From NCBI GenBank assembly GCA_027330985.1, contig DAHVZI010000002.1, forward strand, positions 75,162-139,161: a DNA stretch of 64,000 bases, in the 5' to 3' direction. Under the pieces are notes generated by a model that was not told the DNA's origin, did not search any database, and saw only the letters and a program-made list of their open reading frames with translations. Both the position numbers and the translations under genes were made by a program. Positions within the stretch are counted from its first letter, which is position 1. The number at the start of each line of letters is the position of its first letter. The DNA is from Candidatus Uhrbacteria bacterium (GTDB lineage Bacteria; Patescibacteriota; Patescibacteriia; 2-12-FULL-60-25). This document shows positions 3,204 to 48,456 of this stretch, piece after piece.

Positions 3204-3451
3204 AATTCGTTCTCCGTAAATAAAGACTCTCGTTTTTACACGAAAGCCTTCTGAATGAACGGCTTAACCTTAGCCAGCGGGAGAAGCAGGGTCAAACAAC
3301 GGTGTCAAGAGAAAGAGGGGTGCATCCGTCAGATGGTAATTTGTCAGCTGCGGGGCTCGTCTCATATACCTCGAACACATCCTCGCTCGACAAATCACCC
3401 TCTGACGGATGCTGGAGGAAGGGAAAAAGCGGATGGGTCAGAAAGTTTACC

Positions 3452-3889
3452 CTAGTCTCTGTAGCCGCCTGTGGAGCCTATGCCGCCGCGGTCAGGAGCG
3501 TCGGCTGGACCTTCTTCGAGTTCGGCGCGGATATAGGGCATGATGATGGCATTGACCAGGCGTTCGCCTTTTTCGATCGTGATAGGCGTGTCTCCCGGGT
3601 TGCGCACGATTATCTTTATTTCGTCGTTAGGTCCGCGATAGTCGCTGTCGATGGTGCCGATGCCATTGGCCAAGACAAGGCCTTTCTTCAGATAAAGACT
3701 TGAACGGGAGGTCAAAAACAATACATAGCCATCAGGCATACCGAAACCTAGGCCGGTCGGTACAGGAAGAGCTTGTTTGGGTTGTACGACTACTTGTTCG
3801 GCTGCCGCGAGATCAAAACCTGCCGACCCGGCTGTCTTGTATTCGGGTAAGGCTACATCTTCGCGCAGTCGGGTGATCCTGACTTTCAT
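3452..3889 (-). CDS. dut: dUTP diphosphatase
   Basis: 145 aa with dUTPase motifs (AGFDL, RSSL, GTIDSDYRG, GERLVNAII). Overlaps the upstream kinase gene by 4 nt. Confidence 0.9.
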   Translation of the reverse strand: MKVRITRLREDVALPEYKTAGSAGFDLAAAEQVVVQPKQALPVPTGLGFGMPDGYVLFLTSRSSLYLKKGLVLANGIGTIDSDYRGPNDEIKIIVRNPGDTPITIEKGERLVNAIIMPYIRAELEEGPADAPDRGGIGSTGGYRD

Positions 3890-11683: not shown

Positions 11684-13889
<2,206 letters not shown>

Positions 13890-28018: not shown

Positions 28019-28768
28019 ATGATCAAACGCGCCATCATATTGGCCGGAGGGCAGGGGACGAGGTTGCGTCCTGTGACTTTGGAGACGCCCAAGCCGCTCG
28101 TGACCGTGCAAGGCACGCATATCGCGACATGGCTTCTGCAGCTATTCGCGAAGCATGGTGTTGAAGACGTGACTGTCATCTATCCGACGGCGTGGAAAAA
28201 AAAATTTGAGGAGTGGGGAGAAAGCGTACCGCGTACTTCGTACCGCGTACCGCGGATAGAACTTCATGAAGAAAGAGAACCGATGGGGACCATGGGGGCG
28301 TTGGTGCATGAGGTGGATTTGGGAGACGCGCCGGTGTTCGTCACGAATGGTGACGAACTCAAAGGACTTGATCTGGCGCGCTTATCAGAATTCCATGAGG
28401 AGCAGAAGAGAGCTGATCCGCAGCATGCTGCGACGATAGCTTTGGTACGCGTTCCGAATCCGTCGGAATACGGCGTGGCGGAAATGGACGGTCATAGGAT
28501 CGTACGATTCCATGAGAAACCGGCGATACCGCCTTCGACCCTGATCTCTTCCGGACTTTACGTCATCGAGCCGGATGTTTTGAAAGAAACCGTAGGGGCG
28601 AATAATCATTCGCCACTACCTAAGTTCCTGATGTTCGAAAAAGATCTGTTTCCTCAGCTGGCGGAACAGCGCCGTCTTGCAGGTTGTCAACTTGAAGGGC
28701 AGTGGTACGACTGCGGGACTCTCGAGCGTTGGGAGAAGGCGATCAAGGAGTGGCAGGGCCTCGCCTAA
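28019..28768 (+). CDS. Sugar-phosphate nucleotidyltransferase (G1P thymidylyl-/M1P guanylyl-transferase family)
   Basis: N-terminal AIILAGGQGTRLRP...PKPLV signature. Start taken at MIKRAIILAGG. Confidence 0.75.
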   Translation: MIKRAIILAGGQGTRLRPVTLETPKPLVTVQGTHIATWLLQLFAKHGVEDVTVIYPTAWKKKFEEWGESVPRTSYRVPRIELHEEREPMGTMGALVHEVDLGDAPVFVTNGDELKGLDLARLSEFHEEQKRADPQHAATIALVRVPNPSEYGVAEMDGHRIVRFHEKPAIPPSTLISSGLYVIEPDVLKETVGANNHSPLPKFLMFEKDLFPQLAEQRRLAGCQLEGQWYDCGTLERWEKAIKEWQGLA

Positions 28769-28796
28769 GTGCGGTTTTGTTTGTATCATCTTAGCC

Positions 28797-30026
28797 ATGT
28801 CATCGAACCTCGCTCCTTGGTGGAAAAGGATTTTTTCTGCGCACAGTATCCAGAAGATAGATCGATATAGCTTGGAGATCGTCACGACTCCGGCCGAGTT
28901 GGCGTTGCAGGACCAGTTGCCTTTGGAGATCAGATACGTGTTGGCGCTCAAGCCATCGCGCTTCGAGACTTTAAGGGAGATGTTGGAGGCGGGCTATGGC
29001 ATCGCTGTAAGATCGATGGACTGCACGCCTGAACGTCTGCTCTTGGCTATCGACAGGATATCCCGTTTCACCCAGTACAATACGATAGTGCCTTGGTTGC
29101 CTAACCTGCTGCGTAACGAAGAACTTCCGGTGTTCAGCGAACGCGAGCTACGCGAAGCGGAGGAGCAGGGGGTTAACCTGTATGAAGAAGCTAAGTCCAT
29201 CCTGGAGCAGCGCTTCGAATTCAAGAAGATCGTACTAGTGGATCTGCACAACAGATGCATCAACGAAACGCAGCGGCAGTCGATGTATGAGATCAACCAA
29301 GACCTTTATCCGTTGGCCATAGACGCCATAGTGCACCGCGTGGTCTTCGACAACGCACACTCACGGACGGAGATAGCGCAGACTTTGATCAAGGCGTTGA
29401 TCATCATCGGTCCGATCGCGCATATCTTGGAACATACACTGACCGGCTTGGGTAAGATCTTCGCTGCAAGTTCCGACGATCTGTTGGCGGAGTTGGCGGA
29501 GCTTTTCGCCTTGCGCGGTTCGGGATTCACCTGGCGGCAACTGCTCAAGCGTTCGCGTCTGTTGATTCCGGTATTCATATTGGCGACATATGCCGTCTTC
29601 CAGGTCGAGCCCTTGTTGCACGCAGGAAGGCCGATCACTGCGGGCATCCTGTTCGGATTTTCGGCGGTCGCGCTGTCGCTCGTCACGGCTATACAGTCGA
29701 TCTTCATGTTCCGCAGTTCCTATGTCGCGTTATGCGCAGAAAAGAAGATGGTGCTGAAGACGGGGGAGTCGCTTTTTCGTTGGGCTTTCAGACAGGACTT
29801 CTTGAACCCCGCGCGGCTGGGGTTGTTCATCGGTGCCGCATGCTCTCCTGTGCTTGCCGCTTTGGTCTTCAGTTTTTTCCCCGAGCTGTCGAAAAACGGC
29901 TGGATTTTGGCCGGTTTGGGCTCGGTAGAATCGATTGTCGCAGGTTTGGCGGTATATAACGCAAAATTCGTCGAAAAAGCCTGGTTCAGGCATAAGATAC
30001 TGGGCAGGATGAGAAGGATGGCGTAA
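28797..30026 (+). CDS. Hypothetical membrane protein (C-terminal multi-TM region)
   Basis: Start taken at the ATG (MSSNLAPWW) after the upstream gene's stop. The C-terminal third has about 4 hydrophobic helices. Confidence 0.4.
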   Translation: MSSNLAPWWKRIFSAHSIQKIDRYSLEIVTTPAELALQDQLPLEIRYVLALKPSRFETLREMLEAGYGIAVRSMDCTPERLLLAIDRISRFTQYNTIVPWLPNLLRNEELPVFSERELREAEEQGVNLYEEAKSILEQRFEFKKIVLVDLHNRCINETQRQSMYEINQDLYPLAIDAIVHRVVFDNAHSRTEIAQTLIKALIIIGPIAHILEHTLTGLGKIFAASSDDLLAELAELFALRGSGFTWRQLLKRSRLLIPVFILATYAVFQVEPLLHAGRPITAGILFGFSAVALSLVTAIQSIFMFRSSYVALCAEKKMVLKTGESLFRWAFRQDFLNPARLGLFIGAACSPVLAALVFSFFPELSKNGWILAGLGSVESIVAGLAVYNAKFVEKAWFRHKILGRMRRMA

Positions 30027-32858: not shown

Positions 32859-32878
32859 TAGAACAAAAAAACAAAAAA

Positions 32879-32898
32879 CCCGGTCCGCCGGGTTTTTT
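32879..32898 (+). terminator. Rho-independent terminator
   Basis: CCCGG-tccg-CCGGG hairpin followed by a TTTTTTG run, 20 nt after the GatB/YqeY stop. Confidence 0.75.
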
Positions 32899-33053
32899 GT
32901 TTGTGGATAGAGGTAAAAGAGGGGATGGAATTTTGACCCGTATGGCCCATTTCGATCCATCTCTAACAGTTCTTGGGTTTGAGATCCTTTCCGTTTATTG
33001 CCTTTCTGTTTGTTTGTGCTTTTGTGGTGTATAATTAGCCCATAATACTCGCC

Positions 33054-34931
33054 ATGCAAAAAAATAGAGCGTTCCTCTTTTCATTTTTGAAAACTGCCAC
33101 CGGACGGGTGCTGTTTTTCGCCCTCATAAGCGCCGTGGTCGTGACTCTCTTGCCGGTAGAAATCAGGGCACAGACTGACGTCGGGGTCAATAACGTCCAG
33201 CAGGTAGCGAATACGGCCGGCTTGGCTGGAGGGTCGGATTTGATAACCATCATCGGGAGGATAATCAACATCTTCTTAGGCTTCTTAGGGTTGGTGTTCT
33301 TGGTGTTGATGCTTTACGCCGGATTCACCTGGATGACCGCGGCGGGTGATGCGGATAAGATCAAGAAAGCGCAGGGGACCATCCGTAATGCGATCATCGG
33401 TCTGGTCATCATAGCTTCGGCTTGGGCGATAACATCGTTCATCCTCGGCATTTTCGCAGGACAGGGTTTGGGCGGCATCGGTGGTGGAGGACCTAGCGGG
33501 CCGTTGGCGCCATTCTCTTCAGCGCCAGGTTCGGCTTGCTTGGGCAAGGGGATAATCGAGACGCATCTGCCGGACAGGAACTCTACCGGTATACCGAGGA
33601 ATTCGCCGATCATCATAACGTTCAAGGAGCCGATGAAGCCTGACACGATAATGAAGGGGTGGACGGATGCCACGAGCAATACCCAGATGGAATGGCCCTT
33701 GGAGGATAAGAACGTGCTCATCTATCGGACGGTGCAGGGTCAGGATGCGGCCATGGGATCGGACCAGATAAAGGTCAGATATACCAAGGATCTGAAGACG
33801 TTCGTCTTCAAACCGGCTGATTATTTGGGGAGTCCGACCGAGAAGATTGGCTATACCGTAGTTTTAAAAGGAAGCAAGAACGGTATCCTGAAGGCAGATG
33901 GTTCTCCTGCTCTGACTTGTTCACCGAACAATGAATATTCCTGGCAATTCGAGGTGTCGACAGTGCTTGATCTCACTCCGCCTTATGTGACTGCGGTCAT
34001 CCCGCCGGCTGAAGGACTATACGCGAGGAATATCATAGTGATGTTGAATTTCAATAAAGCCATGGATCCGACCGCGTCACAGGGTACGACGGCTGACGGT
34101 TTCCAGAATATCGAGATTTTGGCTACGCCTAACGGGCAGACCGTAGGCATCCCGGTAACCGGAGAATTCAAGATCGTCAACCAATACAGGACAGTCGAAT
34201 TCGTGAGCGACGCGAAGTGCGGAACGAATTCATGCGGACGCGACGTCTATTGTTTGCCGGGCAATGCACAGATCCAAGTCAACGCCAAAGCTGGGACGTT
34301 GGATGGTCCAGGGCCGCAAGCCGTATTCACGACCAATGGTTATGACGGCTTGGTAAGCGTCGTCGGGAATTCTTTGGATGGCGATCATAACGACAAGGCG
34401 GAAGGTCCGCCGGGAGATAATTATCAGTGGTCTTTCGGAACCTCGAATGACATCAAGCTATCACCGCCGGTGATCGTCAGCACGACGCCTGATTCAGACC
34501 CGAATACCGGTAAGAATTCCAACGTATCATTGGACATGCCGATAACGGCGCTGTTCGATTCTTTCCTTCAGGCGTCTACATTGAATTCGGACAACGTATA
34601 CGTGGATGCCCATGGGACTACCGAGCAACCGGATACTTTCTGGTGGACCGTCGGCATGAAGCTGGTCAAGAACGACGGGTCGGACATCGATACTACGACC
34701 GTACCGCCGGAAAAGCCGGAAGTCAGCGCGCTGACCATAGACCATAGGCCGTTCCAGCCGTCAGGGGTATTCCCGAACCTGAATTATTATGATCCATACA
34801 TCACTTCCGGGGTGCAGGACGCTTATCAGAACTGTTTCGTACCGGCACGAAAATGCGGTGCAGGGAGCGGCGCCAATTGTTGCAAATTCCAACCCAACTC
34901 TGAAGTGTGCAAGAAAATATTAAATCCATGA
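33054..34931 (+). CDS. Secreted/membrane protein: N-terminal TrbC/VirB2-like (CPR T4SS-pilin-like) module fused to ~480-aa extracellular region with Ig-like beta domains
   Basis: Signal peptide plus two hydrophobic helices flanking the motif LYAGFTWMTAAGDADKIKKAQGTIRNAIIGLVIIASAWAIT. The same module occurs at the N-terminus of the next gene. The stop TGA overlaps the start ATG of the giant gene (ATGA at 34928-34931). Confidence 0.6.
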   Translation: MQKNRAFLFSFLKTATGRVLFFALISAVVVTLLPVEIRAQTDVGVNNVQQVANTAGLAGGSDLITIIGRIINIFLGFLGLVFLVLMLYAGFTWMTAAGDADKIKKAQGTIRNAIIGLVIIASAWAITSFILGIFAGQGLGGIGGGGPSGPLAPFSSAPGSACLGKGIIETHLPDRNSTGIPRNSPIIITFKEPMKPDTIMKGWTDATSNTQMEWPLEDKNVLIYRTVQGQDAAMGSDQIKVRYTKDLKTFVFKPADYLGSPTEKIGYTVVLKGSKNGILKADGSPALTCSPNNEYSWQFEVSTVLDLTPPYVTAVIPPAEGLYARNIIVMLNFNKAMDPTASQGTTADGFQNIEILATPNGQTVGIPVTGEFKIVNQYRTVEFVSDAKCGTNSCGRDVYCLPGNAQIQVNAKAGTLDGPGPQAVFTTNGYDGLVSVVGNSLDGDHNDKAEGPPGDNYQWSFGTSNDIKLSPPVIVSTTPDSDPNTGKNSNVSLDMPITALFDSFLQASTLNSDNVYVDAHGTTEQPDTFWWTVGMKLVKNDGSDIDTTTVPPEKPEVSALTIDHRPFQPSGVFPNLNYYDPYITSGVQDAYQNCFVPARKCGAGSGANCCKFQPNSEVCKKILNP

Positions 34932-37900
34932 AGGTACGTAACATTTTCGCCATAGCGTCTATCGGACTCGGCCTGGCGGCGGGTACGATGTTTCTGTCGG
35001 CCCACGCCGTACAAGCACAGGTCGATACGGGGTTGCAGCAGGTGGGGCAGACGGTGAAGCTTTCAGGGACTGACCCGCGCACCATAGCAGCGAACATCAT
35101 CAATATCGCGTTGGGCTTGGTGGGTATCGTGCTCGTCGGTCTGATACTTTACGGTGGCTTCCTGTACATGACGTCGGCCGGTGACAGCGCCAAAGTGGAT
35201 AAAGCCAGGAAAGTCATCACCAACGCCATAATCGGTCTGGTCATAGTGTTGTCGGCTTGGGCCATCACCAGATACGTAATAGATAAGTTGTTGCAGGCGA
35301 CGCAGGAAGGCGGAGGCGTCGGTGGAGGTACTAGCTCTGGTTATGTCGGAGGATTCGGCAGCGGAACGGGCGGCAGCAGCTTCAGGATAGTTTCGATTAC
35401 TCCGCAGGGCAGCCAGCCTGGGAAGCCAAGGAATACCGTAGTCAAGATCCTTTTGACCAAGGCCGTGGATGAAGCGACGGCTTCCGCCGTGACCGTGGTC
35501 AAAGATGGCGGTACGACCGTCGGCGGCACTGTTGCGGTTCAAGGGACGCTTGTGACGTTTACGCCGGTACAAGCCTGCCCTTCGCCGAACGAAACACGTA
35601 AATGTTTCGACGCCGATTCGGCCTTTACGATAAAAGTCGGGACAAGCCTGAAATCAGCTCAAGGACAGCCGATCGCTTGCGGCGGTTTTGCACCAGCATG
35701 CGAAGCGCATTTCACTACAGGCAATCTGGTCGACGTTTCGGGCCCGAACGTGTCTTTGACCTTCCCGACGGACGGCATGTCGATCCAGCAGAATTATTAT
35801 TCGGATGTCTTGGCTCATGCGACAGACGATAGCGGCGTCGCAATCGTGCAATTTTTGGATGGCGCCGATGAGATCGGCAGCGACGGACCGAGTTCGGCGG
35901 ATACGCCGCTAAGTTTCGATGCCAAGATTTTTTGGGATACGGCTGGAGCTGCTTTAGGCGTGCATACCTTGACCGCAAAGGCGTTGGATTTGGATACGAA
36001 CACGACGCAAAGCCAGAGCGTTTCGGTCGTCGTACGCCCGGAACATTGTTTCAACGGTAAACAGGATCAGGATGAGACCGGCATAGACTGTGGTGGTGAT
36101 CCGAACAGCACGGATTTTTGCGGTGCATGCAGCGGGGGTTCGTGCACGAATAATAGCCAATGCGCATCAGGTTTTTGTCAAGGCGGCGTATGTATCGAGA
36201 AGCCGGTGATCAAGTCAGTTTCACCCTTGAACGGAAAGCCGGGCACGTTCGTCTCCATCGCAGGCACCAATTTCGGAACCAATCCTGGGACAGTCGTGTT
36301 TTTGGGTGATCCGAACAATCCAGCCGACGATAAGATCGCAGTCGCGCCGCAGGCTTGCGTAAATGCCGGAAGCCAAACATGGAGCAATACGCAGGCGATA
36401 GTTTCTTTGCCGGATGGTGCAGCTTCAGGGCCGATAGAAATCAAGAATGCTTCCAGCTCATTGACCGACAGGACGGATCAAGATCCTGGGCCGGCAGTCG
36501 CAGATTTCGTCGTGGATAATACGGAACATCCTGGGCTTTGCGCTTTGGATCCAGTGTCCGATAGCGTAGGCAAAAACGTGAAAGCGATAGGACAGGGTTT
36601 CGGAAATTCTCAGGGCAAGATCATATTCGGTTCCCTGGACCAGCAACTGGCGGGCTCGCCGTGGTCTGACGCTAACGTCACGTTCAAGGTTCCGGTCGTC
36701 AACAACGGGCCGTATCAGGTCTGGGTCCAGACAGGCGCAGGCACGAGTAATCCGGCACAGTTCGTGGTGACGGAAAAGAGCCTCGAAGCGGCTCCAGAAT
36801 TGGACAGTCTCGATCCGACACAAGGTCCGTTGCAGCAATATGTGACGCTATATGGCAGGAATTTCGGATATAACGTAGGAACGGTGATTTTTTCCGCACA
36901 GGACGGCACCGAGGCGATCGGTGATACGAGTTTCCCGGCCGCTTGCAGCGCAGGTTTCTGGTTGGATGACACTATCGTGGTCAAGGTACCTTCGGTCTTC
37001 AAGAATAACCAAGGGTTGATCGACGGCACCTATCAGGTCAGGGTAAGACGTTCCGATAATAAGGAGTCGGCCTCGTTGCCTTTCAATGTCAATAAATCCT
37101 TACCTCTCAAGCCAGGCATCTGTGCCATCAGTCCTGCAGTCGGACCCGTAGGTACGGACGTGAAGATCTACGGTGAACGTTTCGGCTTCGACAAACCGTT
37201 GGTGGCTTTCAGCACGAGCAAGCAGGCTTTGGTGCAATCCAATACGAACCAGGAGGTGCAGACTTCGGTACCGAACAATTCGATCACCGGTCCGGTGACG
37301 GTCACGAGCAATGCCGTCATCTCGAACGGTTTCAATTTCCAGGTCAGGAATTGCAATGAAGCCCCTGAAATCTGCGGACCGGTCGATAAGTTCCAATGTT
37401 GCCAGACGGGGGAATGCCGACCTGCAGGACAGTCTTGCGAAGTTGCACCGACCGAATCCGAATACGCCTGGCAGCTTTCCACGGGACTGATCCCATTGGC
37501 GCCATACGTCATCGAAGAATGCCGACCAGACATCACTCCAGCGCCGACTCCTTCACCATCTCCATGGAGCGGCAGAGCGGGTGGTGACCAGGCGCCGATC
37601 GATGCGGCGATAACGATGCGTTTTTCGCAGCAGCTAGAAGCGAGCACGGTCACCAAGCAGGCTTTCCATGTATTTGCCTGCAAAGGCACTTCGGCGGATC
37701 CATGCGATACGAAGGAAGCGATCCAGGATTTCACCATGCACTTGACCCACGAGAACAATCAGCAGGATTTGGTGACGTTGAATCCGAGCGCGAAGTTCGC
37801 GACCAATACCACATATCTGGTGACCATCTCGACAGACATAAAGGGCGCAGGCGAGACAGGGGCCAACATGATCGAGAACAAGGCCTGCGGCAAAGGCCAG

Positions 37901-40900
37901 AACAATGAGACTTACGGCTATTGTTTCAGGTTCAAGACGCGCGCTTCGGAAGAGCCGTCACAAGTCGGTTCGGTCGGCGTCGTTCCATCCAGCTATACCT
38001 TCAAAGAGACCGGAGTCTACATCGGCTACGAAGCCGTACCGACGGATGCACAAGATAAATGCATCGTCCTGGATTGCCAGCAGTTCAACTGGAATTGGCA
38101 TGCCGGAGATACGCGCGGGTCGATCACCAACATGACCGGCGGACAATTCAATTATGGCCTGTGCAACCAGCAAGGGACGGGAAATTTCGAGACGGGTAAC
38201 GTACCGGTGGACATACTTTCCGATCTGGCCGGCACCAGCCTCACGGGACAAGGCGAGATGTTCGTGAATTTCGTGCCGCCCCGCGTCGAGGAATACGCGC
38301 CGAAGTGCGACGAGGCGTGCAGCAATGCTTTGATCTGGGCCAGGTTCTCGGCCAAGCTCGATGCAGCTTCGGCCTTGACCCCGAACAACATCAAATTGCA
38401 GAAGTGTTATAACGAAAATTGTTTCGAATCGGAATTGGGCCAGCCTATCGCCATCACGATGAACCTTAAGGACGATACGACGATCGAGATTTCGCATGCA
38501 CCACTCGAAGCCGGAGGATTCTATCGTCTTTTCCTGCGTGGCGGACCTAACGCCATAAATCCTGCCACATTGGAGAATAACGGAATCCAGGGCCTGAACG
38601 GCGTGCCGATGACGGGAACCAACCATCCGGAAGGGTTTTTCTGGAAATTCCGTGTGTTGCAAGGGACCGCAGCTTTCTGCAAGGCGGAACGCGTAGACCT
38701 CAAACCTTTGGAGAAATACGAGACGAACGTCGATGCGCGTCAGCTTTTCGAGGCGACGCCGTATAGCCCGCCGGATAAGTGCAGCTCTGATGGCCAGCAG
38801 TTGGTGAACCAGGGGGATACACAATGGGCATCAGGCGATATCACGGTCGCGGATTTCTACAGACAGGCACAGTCTCTAATCAAGTCCGATAAGACGAAGC
38901 TGCCTGCAGGCTGTTCGTCAAAATGCTTAGCCATGGGAGCTGGCGGGTTGTTCGGCAAGGTCGCGATGTGCGGTAACGGCATCATAGAGACGACTGACGT
39001 GAATTATTGTATAGGCGGAAAGACTCCCCGAGGTAGCGCATGTAAGCTCATGCCGGCTGGCGCGAAAGCAGGCGAGGAATGTGAGCCGACAATAGACGGT
39101 TTGGATAAGTGCGATGTCGCTACATGCTTGTTCCGTTCCGTGGCTGCCGTCAATCAGGGAGGTACCTGCGGCGACGGTACGGTGCAGGCCGCCGCTGGTG
39201 AAGCGTGTGATTACGGCCCGACATGCGTAGGCGGCAGTACAGCGACCAGCTCTACGCCTGTGCCTGAATACGCTTCATGTCCGGATGCGACGACCAAACA
39301 AGCTTGTGAAAACGCCGGAGGAGTATGCGCGATGCATGATTACCGCGGATGCTCGGCGAATTGTCGGCATACCGGAGCCAAGTCGGGCAAGACGACTTGC
39401 GGTAACGGAGATTTCCACGGCGACGGAAAAGATTGCGATGACGGCAACGTGGCTAACGGCGATGGATGCAGTTCGGATTGTCTACACGAGCCGTCACAGC
39501 CATCTACCGTTTTAGCGGCGGTGTGCGGTAACGGTATTTTGGAAAAAGGCGAGACATGCGAAGCCACTATGGTGAACGGGAGCCCGGTTTTCGCTCCGGG
39601 ATGCGACAGCAGTTCGTGTCTGCATACAGGTACCTTATCCTGCATGCCAGGTCAGAACCTCAGTTGCTGCGGTAATGCGGTGCTTGATCCAGGAGAGGAC
39701 TGCGATGACGGCAACACCGCCTCAAAAGACGGTTGCAGCTCGAGTTGTCTGTTGGAAGGTTCATCAGCCTATTATTCCGCCGTACCTTCCGGCATCGCGC
39801 CGAGTTTCTGCGGCAACGGTTATCTGGAGAAGGGCGAACAATGCGAGGTGGGCGCTTCATCCGACAGTATCGCTAAATTGGTTTATGCGGGCCTGCCGAA
39901 GGACGCTGCCTTGGCATGGTCGCCGGTCTTGAACAAGAGTTTCGGCAGTATCCAAAGCGGCATCGACCCCATACAGTTGGCCAAAATAATCGGCGAAAAA
40001 GAACCCGATCCCGCGACCGGAAGATCATCTTCCGAATTGAGCGCAGTGATGCTGGAACAGACGGGTAAAGCGACGTATGGCCTGCAGTGCGGCTATAACG
40101 ACGAAGCGAATTGCACTCCGGATGACCTGTCTAACCCGCGCGGCCTGGATGATTTCGGTTGCTGCCGACTGCGTCCGATCGTGGCCAAGGCTTATCCGCC
40201 ACCGCCGCCATTCGAGGCTTGCCGTAATGTCCAGATCCAGATCGAATTCAATCAGGCGATGGATACGGTATCGGTGACCAATAATTTCGAGATTTCTGAA
40301 GGTCCTGACGCAGCGAATAAATGTCCGGACGGTACGCAGGAAGTCGTGTTGAACACTGATAATCAGCCGGGTTTCTGGAATTTCCTGAAACGCATTTGGC
40401 GCTCGATCGTCGCTTGGATCTTTAAGCAGCCCGCCATAGCCGAGAAGTGGTGCGTAGGCAAAGTCACGGGACAACTCACCGCAGCCGATCAGCAATCGCA
40501 GGCGACTAAATTCATCTACACTTTGGATCATGCCCTGGATGCCGGAAAGCTTTATCGTATCAGGTTGAAAGGCGACGATGATCTGACCGACAACGCTGAC
40601 AAGAACGCACGGCATGGCATCAAGACGGCGGCTGGCGTGGTGCATGATGGCGACATCACATGGAACTTCAAGACGGGCAACCAGATTTGCGCCTTGAACA
40701 CCGTGACGATATACGATGTGACGCAGGATCCGCCGGACGAGAAGCATCCTTTCCTATATGTAAACAAAGGCAACAAGTCTGAAGAGAGGCATTTCGAGGC
40801 AGAGGCGCAATCTCTGCAGAACGGCACGGCGATACCGCTTTCGACGACAGCTGAATACCAGTGGGATTGGCACGTCTGGACGACGAGCGATCCGGATTTG

Positions 40901-43900
40901 GTGAATTATAGCCCGAATTATCCGATCCAACCGCCGACCTACAAAGGACATTTCGTTTCGGTGGTCGAGGGTAGCGCGCAAAAGAACGGGCACGCGATAC
41001 TGACGGCCGGCATCAAAGTCGTCCACGACGAAGTGAATGTCCCGTCATCCACGGGTTCGGTGATACAAGGCGTGGCACATGTCGCGGTCTTGGCTTGCGA
41101 GAACCCATGGCCATCACTGCAGACTTCCCCGTTCAGCGACACCAAGACTTGGTTGAACGACCGTTGGGCCGATCTGCCTGACTCAAGGCCGAACATCTTC
41201 ATCGGCAACGATCCGTATATCGGCAAACCGGTCTTCTACAATTTCTCCACCATGTATTGTCGCGATGCGGGCGTGGAGCATGACCAGACCGACGATTTGC
41301 CGGAACTCGTGATAAACCAGGTGCCGCGAACCGCAGTGGACAAAGCAAACGGCATCTTGCGTCAATACCTTTTGACCTTCAAGGACGATGCCTTGAAGAA
41401 GGACGGTATCGGTATCCGTGTCGCCGAGAATCCGCAGCATCTGTCGGCTTTGGAGTGGTACTACTCGAAGGGCTTCGCAGGCAAACCGAAAGTGCTTAGT
41501 GTAGACGGTTATCCGGCAGTCCAAGACGGCAACACGTTGTATGTCGATGCCGCCAACCAACCCGAAACGAACGAATCGATATATTCGAACATCTATGTCT
41601 TCTCCTTGAATCCGGATGCTCAGCAGGTGACGCAGGACATATTCAAACAGCTGGTCCAATATCTGGCTTTCAACGTCAACATCGTCGGTCAGAGCAATAC
41701 CTGCCACATAGCAACGGGCGCGAACCAATACACGAATACCGACATCTACACCGACAGTCAGGGAGTACCGAAACGCTGCACCGCAGATTGGGAGTGTGCA
41801 CCTTTGGACTCCTCGAGCAATCTGTTCTGTGATTCCAATAAGGCCAAGATGGCACGTGACACGCAGCGCATGGCTGATTTCCAGGTCATCAACAAACGGT
41901 TGTTGGAGACGCGAGATGCGCAGGGAAGATATCTGCAGCTCCAGACCGGGACGTACCTTAAAGGATTGACGACTTCGTTGTGGCCATCGTGGACGGATGA
42001 ATTCGGGAAGGCCTTGGGCACCATGCCGGTTGATCCGATCGATAGGTTCTTGACTTGTGGAGAGTGCACTGACGGGAGCGTGTGCCAGACGGATAAGGAT
42101 TGCGGGGAAAACGGCAAGTGTATGGGTAAACGTTTCGAGAACGGCGAATGGGTGGACGCACCGGATCTGGATCCGCAGACCTGTTGGAACTCTAAAGCGT
42201 TCACCTATACCTGTCCGGCTTATAAGACCGGCAATCCGTTCTCGGTCTCGCGTCTGTACCAGTACCGCTCCTTGGCCGGAGGCACACAGTATGAATTGGC
42301 TTCGGAGTTCGAAGTCCAACCGATGACATTGAACCAGAAAGACTGGTGGTACCCGGCATTGCCGAGCACCATGTACCAGTGCGTGAATCCTGGAGCGGTC
42401 GGCAGATATTGCAATGACGGCAACGGCAATCCATCAGATGCCCTATGCCGCATCTGCGCGAATCCAGCCAGCTGCAAACAGTGCAAGACGAGCGGTGCGG
42501 ATTGCACGACTAACGCGGCAGTCTGTGCTGCGCCGGATACATGCGTGGATGTAGCTTCGATTCCCGCGTCGTGTCGACCTTTCGGAGGTACGTTCAAATA
42601 TGCCGGAGTCTGTACCAATCAAGCTTATGCCGAGAACGGGACTTGCGGAGACAAAGTCCTCAACAATAACGAACTATGTGAATTAGGCGATACGAAATCA
42701 GAAACCTGTACCGTGAACGGCAAGCCAGGACATCGCCAGCTGACATGTAATGCGTGCACCAAGTTCGATGTGGATCCGCAGAGACCGCAGTGCGTCGAGG
42801 ATTCGGTCTGCGGAAACGGCCGCATAGATAAGGTTTGCGCCGGAAGTACGGTTTCGTGTTTAAGTAATGCTGACTGTGCAGGAGGCGTGCTCTGCATCAA
42901 TAATGAAGCGTGCGATGATGGGGTGGATAACGGCAAATACGGGCACTGTAACGCAACATGCCAGGGTTATGCGGGGTTCTGTGGAGATGGCCAGCTTTCG
43001 CCAGGTGAAGTCTGTGACAAGGGTGTGAACAACGGGCAATGGAGCAATGCCTATAATGCAGCTACCTGTGCGACGAACTGCAAAGGTGTGGGTCCGTATT
43101 GCGGCGATGAGGAGATCAACGGCTCGGAAGAGTGTGACGGCGGTGCCCAGACGACGCAGGCTGCTTTCTGCATAAACGCCAACCCACCGACGCTTTGTGA
43201 TACGAATGCCGATTGCCCGCAAGGTAAATTATGCGCGGGTAAAGCGGTCGCTCGTCTAGACGCAAAATCTTCCCGAACTTTAGCGTTCGTCCGTGGGAAG
43301 TTGGGTGAGGCTTGGTTGAATTATGTGTTGGTACCGGCGGTCCAGGCTGCACCTCCGCCACCCCAGCAACAGAATAGTTCCAACATAAATTCGGTCGTCT
43401 ACACTAAGTTAAATATCTGGACCACTAACACCATCAAACCCGGTAAACTCAGCGGCGGGTTGCAGTTCATTCCTGCTATCCCTGGCGGTGGAGGCGGAGG
43501 ACAACAGACGACGCAATATGTCGATGTCAACGGCAATAAGATAAACGTCACAGCGTTCAATTCATGCGAGGGTGTGTATGTCGTGGATTCAAACGGAATC
43601 AAGCGCGAGACGCAGCACGTGAGGAACTGCAATGCTCCTGGCGCCACCAACTCCTGTAAGTGGAGCGACTGGACCGGTTGTGTCCCGGTCGGCATCTGTG
43701 GCGACGGCATCAAGGATCTTAACGAAGCTTGCGATAATGGAGCAAATAACGGCGATACAAAAGCGTGCACCTCGCAGTGCAAGGTCAATACTTGCGGCGA
43801 CGGTCTGTTGAATGTCGGGGTAGAGGAATGCGATTCAGGTGCGCAGAACGGCCAAGTGACCTGTAACGCCGACTATGATTCGTCCTGCCTATCGTGCAGC

Positions 43901-45649
43901 AATCTGTGTAAGTTCATGGCTTCGGCAGGAGGATATTGCGGCGACGGGGTCAAGAACGGTCCGGAACAATGCGACGGCACTCAAGGCCTGACTGTAGGGA
44001 ATTCTCCGGTGACATGTTCGATGTTGGGCTATGATTACGGAGTGAACGCGAACAATAATGCGACTTGTGCTTCGGATTGCAATTACGGAGGTTGCAAACG
44101 CTGTTCCGACGAACCAGGCGATGGAGTGATAGAGGGAAGGGTGTATGATGCGGTTTTCCAGCAGGTCGTCCCGAACGCACGTGTCAGCCTGATGTATAAA
44201 GGTGCGAAGGTGGAGGAGGCTTTCACGGATCAGGACGGCAAATATAAGTTCGTCGACCTAAATAAAAATTCCGCCTGTACGAGCTACAGAATCGTCATCG
44301 ACATGTATCAGGATAACGTATGTACAGGCCAAGACCATGCCGGCTTCAATTGCTTCAGCGGCGGTGTCAGTCCATGGGTTTATCCGTACGATCTGAATGA
44401 AGGGGCGAATGGGGGATATTTCTCCTTCACGACTGACATCTTCAGCTTCAGTACCTATAAGAGCGTGTTGAACGGCGAAGATTTCGATGCGGTGCCCCAT
44501 ATCGACATATTCCCGCGTCCTGAAAGAGGCCGTGCATACATGGCTATGACATGGAAGCCGACCGGAGATACGATTGGTTATAAGGCTCATACGATATTGC
44601 CTGATGTAAGCGCCTATAAGGTCGTAGATTTTGATGGCGGAGATACGACAATGTCGTGCGATTACGCTACGCGTCCGACTGCTGACGGAAAGGCTTGTGC
44701 ACGAGATATAAACTGGCGTGCCTGGGGCTCGTGGCAGATCGATACCTTGCCGTATACCCGAATGATATGTTTAAGGCGTGTAGGTGAAAAGACATCTGGT
44801 TGGAGCTATAATGCAAAGGTGTGTTCCGGTAGTAGTTTGAGCTGTTCGACCGATGTGGATTGCCCTTCAAGTGAACATTGTATCGATAATGGAAGTCCTA
44901 ATCCCAACGGTTGCCCCTTCGAAGGTGTGGAATGGTGTCTTTCGAATGCAGGCAAGACACTGAGTAGTTGCGGCTGTACTGTCGTTGTAGAGAACGGCAA
45001 GAAGAAGACCGTGTGCACAAGCACCCAAACTGCGTGTAAGGACTGCGGCGCTGACACTAAACATAAGTGCAGCAACGATGCGAATTTGGCGGATTGCGCA
45101 AATCCGATCAGATATGGTCCAACAACGGTTCTGACCAACTATACGGCCCTGATGAACCAGAACGAGGATGTTAAGTTCTACTTCAGCGCCGGTCCAGGCG
45201 AGGCGGCATCATTCAAGTCAGCGATGTCGAATACTTCAAAGGGCTATAAGGCTTATACGGCCATAACTGATTTGTCTGGCGCATCGGAGCAGCAAGTGAT
45301 CGAAAAGCCGTCCGATTCAGGTTGGTTCTGGGAAATCGCTCACTTACAGCCGAAGCAGCAGAAGATCGTCAAGATAGATAAATTAGCCGGTAGCGACAAT
45401 GACATGGCTACGACAATGCAGAATACTCCGACGTCCAATAAACCGAGTTATCTTGATGGTTGGGGAGCTTGGTCGCTGTTCTTCCAGGGTGGCGGAAAAA
45501 ATTATTGCGTAAGCACGACCGATAACACGAAACTCCATCCGACCATCGGCCCATGCTATTGGGATACTCCGAAACAGACCTGCGCGCAGACGGCGGGTTA
45601 TCATTGCGCGGATGTGGATCCCACGACTTATTACAAATATAACTGGTGA
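34928..45649 (+). CDS. Giant (about 3573-3580 aa) cell-surface protein: N-terminal TrbC/VirB2-like pilin module, Gly-rich linker, IPT/TIG-like domains, two clusters of Myxococcus-type cysteine-rich repeats, CarboxypepD_reg-like domain
   Basis: Single uninterrupted 10.7-kb ORF (track 34907..45649 from a GTG). The ATG at 34928 gives a canonical signal peptide (MKVRNIFAIASIGLGLAAG). Recognisable motifs: LYGGFLYMTSAGDSAKVDKARKVITNAIIGLVIVLSAWAIT; IPT/TIG (KPVIKSVSPLNGKPGTFVSIAGTNFG and two more); CGNGx..GExCDDGN..GDGCSSDCL repeats; EGRVYDAVFQQVVPNARVSLMYKG. Confidence 0.8.
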   Translation: MKVRNIFAIASIGLGLAAGTMFLSAHAVQAQVDTGLQQVGQTVKLSGTDPRTIAANIINIALGLVGIVLVGLILYGGFLYMTSAGDSAKVDKARKVITNAIIGLVIVLSAWAITRYVIDKLLQATQEGGGVGGGTSSGYVGGFGSGTGGSSFRIVSITPQGSQPGKPRNTVVKILLTKAVDEATASAVTVVKDGGTTVGGTVAVQGTLVTFTPVQACPSPNETRKCFDADSAFTIKVGTSLKSAQGQPIACGGFAPACEAHFTTGNLVDVSGPNVSLTFPTDGMSIQQNYYSDVLAHATDDSGVAIVQFLDGADEIGSDGPSSADTPLSFDAKIFWDTAGAALGVHTLTAKALDLDTNTTQSQSVSVVVRPEHCFNGKQDQDETGIDCGGDPNSTDFCGACSGGSCTNNSQCASGFCQGGVCIEKPVIKSVSPLNGKPGTFVSIAGTNFGTNPGTVVFLGDPNNPADDKIAVAPQACVNAGSQTWSNTQAIVSLPDGAASGPIEIKNASSSLTDRTDQDPGPAVADFVVDNTEHPGLCALDPVSDSVGKNVKAIGQGFGNSQGKIIFGSLDQQLAGSPWSDANVTFKVPVVNNGPYQVWVQTGAGTSNPAQFVVTEKSLEAAPELDSLDPTQGPLQQYVTLYGRNFGYNVGTVIFSAQDGTEAIGDTSFPAACSAGFWLDDTIVVKVPSVFKNNQGLIDGTYQVRVRRSDNKESASLPFNVNKSLPLKPGICAISPAVGPVGTDVKIYGERFGFDKPLVAFSTSKQALVQSNTNQEVQTSVPNNSITGPVTVTSNAVISNGFNFQVRNCNEAPEICGPVDKFQCCQTGECRPAGQSCEVAPTESEYAWQLSTGLIPLAPYVIEECRPDITPAPTPSPSPWSGRAGGDQAPIDAAITMRFSQQLEASTVTKQAFHVFACKGTSADPCDTKEAIQDFTMHLTHENNQQDLVTLNPSAKFATNTTYLVTISTDIKGAGETGANMIENKACGKGQNNETYGYCFRFKTRASEEPSQVGSVGVVPSSYTFKETGVYIGYEAVPTDAQDKCIVLDCQQFNWNWHAGDTRGSITNMTGGQFNYGLCNQQGTGNFETGNVPVDILSDLAGTSLTGQGEMFVNFVPPRVEEYAPKCDEACSNALIWARFSAKLDAASALTPNNIKLQKCYNENCFESELGQPIAITMNLKDDTTIEISHAPLEAGGFYRLFLRGGPNAINPATLENNGIQGLNGVPMTGTNHPEGFFWKFRVLQGTAAFCKAERVDLKPLEKYETNVDARQLFEATPYSPPDKCSSDGQQLVNQGDTQWASGDITVADFYRQAQSLIKSDKTKLPAGCSSKCLAMGAGGLFGKVAMCGNGIIETTDVNYCIGGKTPRGSACKLMPAGAKAGEECEPTIDGLDKCDVATCLFRSVAAVNQGGTCGDGTVQAAAGEACDYGPTCVGGSTATSSTPVPEYASCPDATTKQACENAGGVCAMHDYRGCSANCRHTGAKSGKTTCGNGDFHGDGKDCDDGNVANGDGCSSDCLHEPSQPSTVLAAVCGNGILEKGETCEATMVNGSPVFAPGCDSSSCLHTGTLSCMPGQNLSCCGNAVLDPGEDCDDGNTASKDGCSSSCLLEGSSAYYSAVPSGIAPSFCGNGYLEKGEQCEVGASSDSIAKLVYAGLPKDAALAWSPVLNKSFGSIQSGIDPIQLAKIIGEKEPDPATGRSSSELSAVMLEQTGKATYGLQCGYNDEANCTPDDLSNPRGLDDFGCCRLRPIVAKAYPPPPPFEACRNVQIQIEFNQAMDTVSVTNNFEISEGPDAANKCPDGTQEVVLNTDNQPGFWNFLKRIWRSIVAWIFKQPAIAEKWCVGKVTGQLTAADQQSQATKFIYTLDHALDAGKLYRIRLKGDDDLTDNADKNARHGIKTAAGVVHDGDITWNFKTGNQICALNTVTIYDVTQDPPDEKHPFLYVNKGNKSEERHFEAEAQSLQNGTAIPLSTTAEYQWDWHVWTTSDPDLVNYSPNYPIQPPTYKGHFVSVVEGSAQKNGHAILTAGIKVVHDEVNVPSSTGSVIQGVAHVAVLACENPWPSLQTSPFSDTKTWLNDRWADLPDSRPNIFIGNDPYIGKPVFYNFSTMYCRDAGVEHDQTDDLPELVINQVPRTAVDKANGILRQYLLTFKDDALKKDGIGIRVAENPQHLSALEWYYSKGFAGKPKVLSVDGYPAVQDGNTLYVDAANQPETNESIYSNIYVFSLNPDAQQVTQDIFKQLVQYLAFNVNIVGQSNTCHIATGANQYTNTDIYTDSQGVPKRCTADWECAPLDSSSNLFCDSNKAKMARDTQRMADFQVINKRLLETRDAQGRYLQLQTGTYLKGLTTSLWPSWTDEFGKALGTMPVDPIDRFLTCGECTDGSVCQTDKDCGENGKCMGKRFENGEWVDAPDLDPQTCWNSKAFTYTCPAYKTGNPFSVSRLYQYRSLAGGTQYELASEFEVQPMTLNQKDWWYPALPSTMYQCVNPGAVGRYCNDGNGNPSDALCRICANPASCKQCKTSGADCTTNAAVCAAPDTCVDVASIPASCRPFGGTFKYAGVCTNQAYAENGTCGDKVLNNNELCELGDTKSETCTVNGKPGHRQLTCNACTKFDVDPQRPQCVEDSVCGNGRIDKVCAGSTVSCLSNADCAGGVLCINNEACDDGVDNGKYGHCNATCQGYAGFCGDGQLSPGEVCDKGVNNGQWSNAYNAATCATNCKGVGPYCGDEEINGSEECDGGAQTTQAAFCINANPPTLCDTNADCPQGKLCAGKAVARLDAKSSRTLAFVRGKLGEAWLNYVLVPAVQAAPPPPQQQNSSNINSVVYTKLNIWTTNTIKPGKLSGGLQFIPAIPGGGGGGQQTTQYVDVNGNKINVTAFNSCEGVYVVDSNGIKRETQHVRNCNAPGATNSCKWSDWTGCVPVGICGDGIKDLNEACDNGANNGDTKACTSQCKVNTCGDGLLNVGVEECDSGAQNGQVTCNADYDSSCLSCSNLCKFMASAGGYCGDGVKNGPEQCDGTQGLTVGNSPVTCSMLGYDYGVNANNNATCASDCNYGGCKRCSDEPGDGVIEGRVYDAVFQQVVPNARVSLMYKGAKVEEAFTDQDGKYKFVDLNKNSACTSYRIVIDMYQDNVCTGQDHAGFNCFSGGVSPWVYPYDLNEGANGGYFSFTTDIFSFSTYKSVLNGEDFDAVPHIDIFPRPERGRAYMAMTWKPTGDTIGYKAHTILPDVSAYKVVDFDGGDTTMSCDYATRPTADGKACARDINWRAWGSWQIDTLPYTRMICLRRVGEKTSGWSYNAKVCSGSSLSCSTDVDCPSSEHCIDNGSPNPNGCPFEGVEWCLSNAGKTLSSCGCTVVVENGKKKTVCTSTQTACKDCGADTKHKCSNDANLADCANPIRYGPTTVLTNYTALMNQNEDVKFYFSAGPGEAASFKSAMSNTSKGYKAYTAITDLSGASEQQVIEKPSDSGWFWEIAHLQPKQQKIVKIDKLAGSDNDMATTMQNTPTSNKPSYLDGWGAWSLFFQGGGKNYCVSTTDNTKLHPTIGPCYWDTPKQTCAQTAGYHCADVDPTTYYKYNW

Positions 45650-47100: not shown

Positions 47101-48456
47101 ATGCCTGAAGAACAGATGAAACAAAACACGGCTGCAGCTGCAGAACCGGAAATAGTAGTCATACCGGAGAAGTACTACGGTGCTGCTTTGCGAGCTAAGG
47201 CTCCTGAGATGGCGCCTATGCCTCAGCAGACATTGGAGAAACCCAAGAAGAGCCATGTTTTGCCTATCGTGATCGTTGTCGTCGTCCTGTTGATAGGTGC
47301 CGCCGCCGCTTTCGTCTATCTCAATCAGGAGTTGTTTTTCCCCAAGCCAGCGCCTACGCCGCAACCCGTCGTCGAGACGCCGGTCGAACCGACACCTGTG
47401 CCGCCTCCCGCCGCTCCGCTCAACCTAGCGGCTACATCGACTAATCCGCAGAGCGTCGCGATATCCTGGACCGATAATTCGGATAACGAATCAGGTTTCC
47501 GTCTGGAGCGCGCTGAAGGCACTGGCCCATTCTTCGCTTTGACCAATCTTCCGCCGAACAGCAGTTCTTTCCTGGATGTTTCGGTCAAAGCAGACACGAC
47601 ATATCGTTATCGTGTATTCGCCTCTAACCAGTCTGGAGATTCCGCTCCATCAAACGAGTCCACGGCGCAAGTCCCACCATTACCGCCGGCGCCACCTGAA
47701 CAGCAGAAGCTCCCACCGGCAGGTCTGGACAGCGACTCTGACGGTCTGACTGATCTGGAGGAGGACCTATTCAAGACGAACAAGAACAACCCAGACACCG
47801 ACGGAGACGGATTCTTGGACGGCAATGAGGTATTCCATCTGTACAACCCGAATGGTCAGGCGCCAGCCCGTCTGATAGACGCCGGTCTGGTCAAGGAGGT
47901 CAAGGGAAGCGTGGGTTGGACGATGCAGATCCCGAGCGTCTGGAGCATAAAATTAGATAAGACTGACGGCACTGCTGCTACGATCGATAGCGGGCATGGC
48001 GAGACCTTCATCCTCACCATACAGGATAATCCGAACAGGTTACCGATAATCGATTGGTATCTCGAGAAGAATCCTGATGTGCAACGCAGCGAAATATTGG
48101 TCTACAGGTCCAAGCAGGGTTATGACGGAATCATCGGTAAAGACCTATTGACTACGTACATACCCTGGGAAGATAAAGTCTTCGTATTCAAGTACGATAT
48201 CGACGGCCAGCAGTACATAAACTATCGGACGACATATTCGATGATGTTGAATTCCCTCATCCTGCAGGGTATGCCGCAGGTTTCTCCGCCGGTAGCAGGG
48301 ACACCGTTGCCTTTCGAACCAGCCGCTACGACCACAGGGGTCGTAAACCAGCCACAAGCCGTCGATGTATTCCCTTCGCCCGGAGAACAGACGCCCGTTG
48401 AGGGAACAGAGGGCCTGACGGCTACCACTACAGAGACGGTAAATCCAGCGCCATGA
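47101..48456 (+). CDS. Membrane-anchored surface protein with fibronectin-type-III domain and thrombospondin-type-3-like Ca-binding motif (paralogue of previous gene)
   Basis: 451 aa. TM VLPIVIVVVVLLIGAAAAFVYL, then an FN3-like region (LNLAATSTNPQSVAISWTD...YRYRVFASN), then LDSDSDGLTDLEEDLFKTNKNNPDTDGDGFLDGNEVFHLYNP. The C-terminus ends ..YRTTYSMMLNSLILQ. Confidence 0.55.
   Translation: MPEEQMKQNTAAAAEPEIVVIPEKYYGAALRAKAPEMAPMPQQTLEKPKKSHVLPIVIVVVVLLIGAAAAFVYLNQELFFPKPAPTPQPVVETPVEPTPVPPPAAPLNLAATSTNPQSVAISWTDNSDNESGFRLERAEGTGPFFALTNLPPNSSSFLDVSVKADTTYRYRVFASNQSGDSAPSNESTAQVPPLPPAPPEQQKLPPAGLDSDSDGLTDLEEDLFKTNKNNPDTDGDGFLDGNEVFHLYNPNGQAPARLIDAGLVKEVKGSVGWTMQIPSVWSIKLDKTDGTAATIDSGHGETFILTIQDNPNRLPIIDWYLEKNPDVQRSEILVYRSKQGYDGIIGKDLLTTYIPWEDKVFVFKYDIDGQQYINYRTTYSMMLNSLILQGMPQVSPPVAGTPLPFEPAATTTGVVNQPQAVDVFPSPGEQTPVEGTEGLTATTTETVNPAP

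Follow-up and report, generated by a model that had tools for sequence, protein, structure and literature searches.

A giant protein of Candidatus Uhrbacteria with a predicted VirB2-type pilin module at its N terminus, encoded next to a second, smaller pilin fusion

The stretch of DNA analyzed here (hereafter the window) is a 64,000-nucleotide segment of a Candidatus Uhrbacteria genome, corresponding to positions 75,162 to 139,161 of contig DAHVZI010000002.1. Its most striking feature is a pair of adjacent genes whose products both begin with a predicted conjugative-pilin module of the VirB2 type. The downstream member of the pair, which we call the giant, is by far the largest gene of its neighborhood and continues beyond the module into some 3,440 residues of extracellular type, whereas its upstream partner adds about 500. 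No other open reading frame (ORF) in the window carries a pilin module. At NCBI, a homolog of the giant is annotated only as “Ig-like domain-containing protein”. The features of the locus are collected in Table 1.

Table 1. Features of the pilin-fusion locus. Coordinates are window positions unless stated otherwise; residues are those of the giant; Ig, immunoglobulin.
Feature	Residues	Coordinates	Strand	Basis or description
Partner pilin fusion, 625 aa		33054..34931	+	Signal peptide, VirB2-type module, Gly-rich linker, Big_5 Ig-like domains
Giant pilin-fusion gene, 3,573 aa		34928..45649	+	One ORF without interruption; stop at 45647-45649
Predicted Sec-type signal peptide	1-30	34928..35017	+	Translation, hydrophobicity; signal peptidase I site VQA/QVDTG
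Predicted VirB2/TrbC-type pilin module	31-128	35018..35311	+	Exposed N-segment GTDPRTIAANIIN, helix 1, basic loop SAGDSAKVDKARK, helix 2
Gly-rich flexible linker	~129-151	35312..35380	+	Sequence; homologs are likewise G-rich at this position
Big_5 and Big_7 domains, Ig-like	152-264 and 273-350	35381..35977	+	Pfam
Four IPT/TIG Ig-like domains	~426-810	36203..37357	+	Pfam TIG, 4 stretches, 70 bits on the segment
Big_5 Ig-like domain	887-976	37586..37855	+	Pfam
First cysteine-rich acidic repeat region (DUF4215/myxo_disulf_rpt, CGxG...ExCD)	~1380-1720	39065..40087	+	TIGR02232, DUF4215, motif count
Conserved alpha/beta domain, PsbP/Mog1/LpqN/DcrB-like fold	~2125-2250	41300..41677	+	
Second cysteine-rich repeat region, with variable insert at ~2750-2900	~2400-3050	42125..44077	+	Cys density, conservation profile
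CarboxypepD_reg/SdrD-B-like beta-sandwich (weak)	3068-3113	44129..44266	+	PF13620 at 25.3 bits, below its cut-off of 32.3; SdrD_B
Hypervariable C-terminal region	~3200-3573 plus stop	44525..45649	+	Identity to homologs 7-20%, many gaps
31-codon in-frame insertion/deletion		44803-44906, versus 13594-13610 of locus L001		Cys-rich stretch VCSGSSLSCSTDVDCPSSEHCIDNGSPNP in the variable C-terminal region
Small membrane protein, 101 aa		45646..45951	+	Overlaps the giant's stop; no family match; found by phmmer in 9 of 80 loci
Two paralogous single-pass membrane proteins, 352 and 451 aa		45957-47015 and 47101-48456	+	Pfam TSP3_bac; one also fn3

The ORF list and its translation offer two possible starts for the giant, GTG at 34907 and ATG at 34928. 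The latter is the actual start codon, because public gene calls use it, homologs begin at an aligned methionine, and it overlaps the upstream stop. An original prediction, made from the letters of the window, had described a single uninterrupted ORF of ~3580 residues; the single ORF is correct, but its length had been counted from the upstream GTG. A protein identical to the giant is present on three public contigs from different assemblies, one of which is an independent Logan assembly of run SRR13189623. We also compared the window with JAJYXM010000016.1 (isolate FK3.bin42, locus L001), a distinct strain that serves as species representative in the GTDB scan described below and is 97.7% identical at the DNA level. 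Over 3,291 aligned codons, the giant differs from its counterpart by 258 synonymous and 35 non-synonymous changes, a ratio of non-synonymous to synonymous rates (dN/dS) of 0.037, and is under strong purifying selection. Its reading frame is intact despite one in-frame indel of 31 codons, the sole large difference between the two strains over 21 kb. Among more distant relatives, ∼30 giants are colinear with the window protein, with 31–51% identity over 80–100% of its length; full-length colinear homologs of 3,000–3,850 residues come from many genomes, and more than 50 complete orthologs of 3,000–3,800 residues carry the pilin module at their N terminus. Because the same protein occurs on three contigs, the frame is kept with mostly synonymous changes, and colinear homologs exist, a chimera, a frameshift, and a chance ORF are excluded, and the continuity of the gene as first described stands.

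The first ∼130 residues had been read as a signal peptide followed by two hydrophobic helices in the manner of a conjugative pilin, and this interpretation is supported. A hydrophobicity scan of the giant detects hydrophobic stretches only at residues ∼5–25, ∼51–85, and ∼95–119, with none in the other 3,450 residues. Signal peptidase I would cleave after the alanine of the VQA/QVDTG site, and giants at related loci have the same context, A-x-A followed by Q-V-D-T-G-L, around the putative cleavage site. The T4SS_pilin profile PF18895, whose gathering score is 26.6, aligns over positions 6–71 of its 71 to residues 51–117; the score is 45.2 bits when the whole protein is searched and 51.7 bits when only residues 1–140 are. 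A second model, NF045849 (Mbov_0395 family pilin-like conjugal transfer protein, from a Mycoplasma integrative and conjugative element), scores 39.3 bits on the N terminus, against a cut-off of 40. Relatives carry the names pilin or VirB2, and some of them also match PF04956.

The relationship to VirB2 itself was addressed by profile–profile comparison with hhalign, using a profile of the module family (44 sequences, comprising the window module and 43 relatives) and an alignment of eight VirB2/TrbC proteins from MPF_T plasmids, in each of which the gene lies between virB1 and virB3. The two align with a probability of 92.1% and an E value of 6.3e-7. Residues 46–117 of the giant pair with residues 52–117 of Agrobacterium tumefaciens VirB2, a span that takes in almost all of the mature T-pilin, and SGTDPRTIAANIINIALG of the module lies opposite GGTDPATMVNNICTFILG of VirB2; the peptide LYGGFLYMTSAGDSAKVDKARKVITNAIIGLVIVLSAWAIT, quoted in the original prediction, corresponds to residues 74–114 of the giant. 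AlphaFold2 models the module as a hairpin with helices at residues 50–81 and 87–128 connected by a loop at 82–86, with a predicted local distance difference test score of ∼90. The loop SAGDSAKVDKARK is net basic, with three to four lysines or arginines against two acidic residues. On this profile evidence, we assign the N terminus of the giant as a VirB2-type conjugative-pilin module. The basic loop and the cleavable signal peptide point to a VirB2-like topology, following the positive-inside rule and homology, in which the loop is cytoplasmic and the two ends are external. With both ends of the hairpin outside, the 3,440 residues that follow would be extracellular. Their Ig-like, TIG, and cysteine-rich domains are of the extracellular type that had been claimed for more than 3400 residues beyond the module.

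The module is also unusually well conserved. Across 19 homologs, its identity is 0.58, compared with ∼0.40 for the whole giant, placing it among the best-conserved stretches of the protein. In a set of 49 genomes, the module has an identity of 0.58 in both fusions, versus 0.40–0.44 for the rest of each protein. As a control, the single-pass anchors of two neighboring membrane proteins have identities of 0.32 and 0.26 in the same genomes, where their own protein means are 0.40 and 0.26. Constraint on the pilin module is thus stronger than on a generic anchor. This difference suggests that the module makes specific contacts, whose partners could be other modules, small pilins, lipid, or a machine.

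Beyond the linker, the ectodomain combines Ig-like domains with two cysteine-rich regions, and the giant contains 168 cysteines in all (4.7%). TIGR02232 (myxo_disulf_rpt) matches three stretches of the giant with 48.6 bits (cut-off 20.8), DUF4215 (PF13948) matches with 35.5 bits (cut-off 27), and the CGxG...ExCD motif is present six times. In the second cysteine-rich region, CGDG...ECD motifs are found at residues 2685, 2924, 2956, and 3004. A word-index search with residues 2095–2400 returned one match. Conservation among the 19 homologs varies rather little over residues 1 to ∼3150 and then collapses in the last ∼370 residues. These same ∼370 residues contain 36 of the 65 amino acid differences, as well as the sole indel (31 residues), that separate the giant from the 97.7%-identical strain. 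We propose that this hypervariable segment is the distal, ligand-facing tip of the protein; a fiber that meets a changing partner with its tip would be expected to show just this combination of a conserved base and stalk and variability at the far end.

The giant terminates in ...YYKYNW, and neither an LPXTG sortase signal, a C-terminal hydrophobic anchor, nor an RTX/type I secretion system (T1SS) signal was detected in it by hydrophobicity, Pfam, or NCBIfam. Its end (window 45629–45646) and those of its closest homologs, P0048, P0051, P0052, and P0110, all finish with NW (KYNW, AFNW, KLNW, QINW). That this dipeptide is kept despite the hypervariability around it hints at a recognition or processing signal.

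The 625-residue partner, which the original prediction overlooked, matches PF18895 with 37.6 bits and NF045849 with 40.7 bits (cut-off 40), contains a Big_5 match, and is recovered by phmmer with the giant's N terminus at 3e-25. Its TGA stop overlaps the ATG of the giant as ATGA, and a terminator-like hairpin follows the preceding gene, yqeY, at 32869–32902. The hairpin and the overlap together suggest that the two pilin fusions are co-transcribed and translationally coupled.

The giant is not a one-off. A scan of one genome per GTDB species identified it as a conserved ortholog in at least 147 genomes, from Candidatus Uhrbacteria and their relatives, and 80 loci were retrieved. The retrieved loci are titled Candidatus Uhrbacteria or Patescibacteria group. 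Many contigs that are clearly of Uhrbacteria by virtue of the same giant and synteny (for example, L005, L009, and L010) have been deposited as “uncultured Gammaproteobacteria bacterium” (metagenome-assembled genomes from binchicken co-assembly), a title that seems to be a placeholder or a taxonomic error. When residues 1–140 were searched exhaustively with phmmer against 1.84 billion representatives, 34,631 matches were obtained, and 35 of the best 150 are proteins of 3,000–5,000 residues with the module at their N terminus. The best 120 profile matches to the module are 119–393 residues long. In all 66 of the 66 loci that include the 5′ region, the module is present on the giant, on the ∼630-residue gene, or, mostly, on both. 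Six loci have an extra stand-alone pilin gene of 117–139 residues within the array, and in a seventh (L081) a 616-residue fusion is followed by a 107-residue pilin (P0004) and then by the giant. Two further candidates for stand-alone pilins, P0002 and P0062, were rejected, as they carry the linker of the giant and look like truncated giant fragments. Because both fusions bear the module and some loci add small pilin genes, we interpret the locus as a pilin array of the Patescibacteria kind, two members of which bear large extensions.

Multiplication of the module takes other forms outside the window. Approximately 40–45 of the best 150 module matches have two to seven modules, and in the poly-pilins P0046 (606 residues) and P0047 (501 residues) one signal peptide precedes six or seven tandem VirB2-like hairpins. 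We considered whether these proteins are read-through artefacts of alternative genetic codes and rejected this, given the single signal peptide and the lack of internal starts; they appear to be genuine. Concatenated proteins of this kind show that a membrane can accommodate six or seven such hairpins next to one another. Separate arrays of five to six small PF18895 pilins are present in Uhrbacteria, directly after an SBP_bac_1/8-like gene (L093, 8904–11752; L094, 8783–11358), and no Pfam-recognized gene of a type IV secretion system (T4SS) lies within 10 kb of them.

The two fusions lie in a conserved gene order, HisRS, YqeY, the ∼630-residue pilin fusion, the giant, a TSP3-repeat protein, an fn3/TSP3 protein, YbeY, a DgkA-like protein, FtsA, and FtsZ. 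The syntenic block corresponds to window 30099–52034 in the comparison with loci L001–L080. Single neighbors are kept in 58–70 of the 80 loci, with the ∼630-residue fusion upstream of the giant in 65 and the TSP3/fn3 proteins downstream in 69–70. Synteny would link the TSP3 membrane proteins functionally to the giant, while it is uncertain whether the 101-residue membrane protein immediately downstream is part of the same system. Both TSP3 paralogs consist of an N-terminal cytoplasmic part, one transmembrane (TM) helix, a proline-rich spacer, TSP3 calcium-binding repeats, and a shared C-terminal domain, and they are weakly similar to the TSP3 regions of the myxobacterial gliding and cohesion proteins CglD and MtsD. 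The remaining genes of the window are housekeeping in nature (signal peptidase I, HisRS, FtsW, GyrB, ThyX, MurA-like, PrmC, NrdR, HtrA, PK, and PPDK), and all ORFs of at least 500 residues are accounted for by ThyX, GyrB, a PEP-utilizing protein, an ABC ATPase, PPDK, and the two pilin fusions. Elsewhere in the window, a predicted surface protein of 350 residues with CARDB/Ig-like domains and TSP3 repeats is encoded on the forward strand at 9247–10299.

Genes for a T4SS are not found with the fusions. The 64-kb window contains no VirB4- or VirD4-sized ATPase, and neither the window nor the ∼4–7 kb on either side of the giant in the 80 related loci contains T4SS machinery genes (virB3, virB4, or virB6). 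The original prediction had stated that the window has neither VirB4 nor VirB6. Its first half holds; the second is less secure, since a 449-residue polytopic ORF (28677–30026, forward strand) has no Pfam or NCBIfam match, such that the window may include a small VirB6-like protein. The C-terminal half of this ORF contains several hydrophobic helices; 5 kb separate it from the pilin fusions downstream, and the related loci do not extend over this part of the window.

The first 128 residues of the giant share with VirB2/TrbC pilins and with the small PF18895 proteins a signal peptide, two hydrophobic helices, and a short basic loop. In contrast to the VirB2/TrbC family, in which the mature pilin is a single module of ∼70–130 residues, the giant lies far outside this size. 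VirB2 and TrbC pilins undergo head-to-tail cyclization, which the fusion in the giant precludes, and VirB2 pilins are usually encoded with T4SS genes, whereas the array of the giant lies among housekeeping and division genes. Small VirB2-like pilins in arrays of 2–11 genes are described from Patescibacteria (Quinonero-Coronel 2025, PMC12102498; Wang 2023, PMC10633639), and the giant is likewise part of a tandem array of pilin-module genes; those small pilins are ∼100–260 residues long with nothing attached, but here 3,440 (giant) or 500 (partner) residues follow the module.

In design, the closest parallel is with the modular type IV pilins PilB and PilC of Streptococcus sanguinis (Raynaud 2021, PMC8179133), which also have an N-terminal pilin module, a flexible linker, and C-terminal adhesive modules, and in which several differently decorated pilins likewise occur side by side. 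That paper places PilB and PilC at the pilus tip, and the largest modular type IV pilin it cites has 860 residues, making the giant far larger. The type IV pilin module (IPR012902) has a class III signal peptide and a single α1 helix, whereas here a VirB2 hairpin from an unrelated family follows a Sec signal peptide. No class III prepilin-peptidase motif (G-F-x-x-x-E, cleaved between G and F) is present in any ORF of the window; because of this, and because the module is of the VirB2 type, the likeness is one of design and not of family. Modular type IV pilins are assembled by the type IV pilus machinery, but the giant would need a T4SS, and its incorporation into a filament is hypothetical.

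Other giant adhesins with Ig repeats (SiiE, LapA, Embp, and a 7,651-residue adhesin of Mobiluncus) similarly extend over thousands of residues with Ig-like domains and repeats. However, these adhesins are held by a T1SS retention module, an LPXTG–sortase link, or non-covalent wall binding; the giant has none of these and has a pilin hairpin instead, and it also differs from them in its high cysteine content and its myxobacterial-type disulfide repeats. The extended VirB6 proteins of Rickettsiales-type T4SSs (PMC12857230) provide a precedent for a membrane T4SS component with large hydrophilic domains, but VirB6 is polytopic and a different T4SS component from the pilin. No description of a pilin fused to a large protein was found in the searched literature on Patescibacteria pilins, T4SSs, and giant adhesins, consistent with the earlier view that this architecture is undescribed.

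The interpretation that we favor, with a confidence that stops at the midpoint, is that the giant is a modular VirB2-type pilin whose hairpin remains in the membrane of the cell itself, as the specialized anchor of a giant extracellular fiber, probably packed there with the hairpin of the partner. The Sec signal peptide would be cleaved after residue 30, and the two pilin helices would insert as a hairpin in the orientation of VirB2, with the basic loop cytoplasmic and both ends out. Helix 2 would then act as a start-transfer signal for export of the next ∼3,440 residues. From the membrane outward, the Gly-rich linker would be followed by a stalk rich in disulfides, built of Ig-like domains, cysteine-rich repeats, and the PsbP/LpqN-like domain, and the stalk in turn by a fast-evolving tip that would touch the target. 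Translational coupling would have the giant and its 625-residue sister fusion made together, such that the base of the fiber could form by packing of their conserved hairpins against one another and against small pilins. We infer Sec export of the ectodomain, formation of a disulfide-stabilized fiber, and attachment via the tip from the protein sequence and its relatives. A plausible purpose would be to attach the Uhrbacteria cell, which is ultra-small and probably depends on a host, to a surface or to another cell.

Several points weigh against this interpretation. About half of the giant has no domain recognized by Pfam, and the cleavage site and topology were judged by eye rather than by a predictor. 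A Foldseek search of the PDB with the hairpin model returned non-significant helical hairpins only, with no match at E < 1, and neither a PDB sequence-profile search nor a tblastn search against plasmids found a match to the module. As these searches gave nothing, membership of the VirB2 family rests on hidden Markov model and profile–profile evidence. The highly conserved stalk, and the position of the locus beside ftsA and ftsZ in nearly all relatives, would fit a housekeeping role in the envelope as well. Finally, the view of Uhrbacteria as episymbionts is assumed from general Patescibacteria biology.

The chief alternative, which we hold only tentatively, is that the adhesin is displayed on a pilus. 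A T4SS would extract the hairpin from the membrane, and the giant and the 625-residue partner would co-polymerize with small VirB2-like pilins, either at the pilus tip or sparsely along the filament. The conservation of the module, far above that of generic anchors and extending to the exposed N-terminal segment that aligns with the N terminus of mature VirB2, is consistent with such a filament, as are the small stand-alone pilin genes within the same array in some relatives and the separate arrays of five to six small pilins in Uhrbacteria; yet T4SS genes are found neither in the 64-kb window nor within ∼4–7 kb of the giant in the 80 loci. Table S1 of Quinonero-Coronel et al. (PMC12102498) lists VirB4 in seven of the nine Uhrbacteria rows considered here, among them the genome of the giant-bearing locus L057, whereas it scores the genome of another giant-bearing locus, L070, as negative, although this is a 745-kb draft. 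Given this listing, the independence from a T4SS that the original prediction suggested for the module is no more than a possibility. In the accounts of Patescibacteria T4SSs that we drew on, the pilin arrays and the T4SS are essential in S. epibionticum, the one Patescibacteria species tested, and a PrgB-like adhesin is described as not detected in Patescibacteria. The potential for conjugative pili is called unique among monoderms, but the relevant passage of a review on Patescibacteria says only “potential”, and in these accounts no T4SS pilus has been visualized. The principle of modular pilins is established for type IV pili; against its transfer to this case, an extension of 3,440 residues would be too big for every subunit of a filament, and a C-terminal fusion rules out the head-to-tail cyclization of VirB2 and TrbC. 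In its most specific form, about which we are just as guarded, the T4SS of Uhrbacteria would build a pilus with a tip complex of modular VirB2 pilins (625 and 3,573 residues) as the host-attachment organelle of an ultra-small symbiont.

We consider it improbable that the giant is instead a housekeeping structure of the envelope or division apparatus, such as a coat, a spacer, or an S-layer-like part, with the hairpin simply an inherited anchor. The near-universal and colinear occurrence of the giant across the lineage, the very low dN/dS, and the PsbP/LpqN/DcrB-like fold, which is typical of envelope-biogenesis proteins, would be in keeping with such a role, but its C-terminal ∼370 residues are hypervariable even between 97.7%-identical strains, a property of ligand- or host-facing tips and not of lattice proteins, and arrays of Ig-like and TIG domains are typically carried by adhesins. 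The fixed order of yqeY, the pilin fusions, the TSP3/fn3 proteins, ybeY, the dgkA-like gene, ftsA, and ftsZ in ∼60–70 of the 80 loci could be counted on the same side, but small genomes of this sort keep gene order anyway, so the ftsAZ adjacency is weak evidence.

It is very unlikely that the module serves as a mere carrier, bringing the polypeptide through the membrane before a cut in or after the Gly-rich linker yields a small pilin and a secreted protein of 3,400 residues. TrbC and other conjugative pilins naturally lose C-terminal residues before they mature, the flexible Gly-rich linker after the module is conserved, and the 107-residue pilin of L081 stops where the linker of the giants starts. 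However, the conserved cluster has no protease or maturation gene, a conserved cleavage motif is not seen, and, with neither an LPXTG signal nor a C-terminal TM segment as another anchor, the released protein would be lost, a poor fit to a conserved fiber with a variable tip. An artefact, in the form of a chimeric assembly, a fused gene call, or a pseudogene, has next to no probability in view of the identical protein in three separately assembled contigs, the mainly synonymous changes with which the divergent strain keeps the frame, and the more than 50 complete orthologs that bear the module.

The giant pilin fusion is widespread in its lineage and not unique to this genome. A large part of bacterial diversity belongs to the Patescibacteria, most of which are believed to live in attachment to other cells. 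A pilin hairpin carrying a fiber of thousands of residues with a fast-evolving tip would provide a concrete link between the pilins of these bacteria and cell attachment, and would extend the principle of the modular pilin from type IV pili to conjugative pilins. The two coupled pilin fusions upstream of ftsA-ftsZ also constitute a marker for comparative, proteomic, and imaging work. If the fusions do sit at a pilus tip, the giant would be the first modular conjugative pilin, part of a conjugation-derived machine turned host-attachment organelle, and would supply the adhesin reported missing from the T4SSs of Patescibacteria. If the hairpin is only a static anchor, it would still represent a means, not described before, of tethering a giant surface protein to a monoderm cell.

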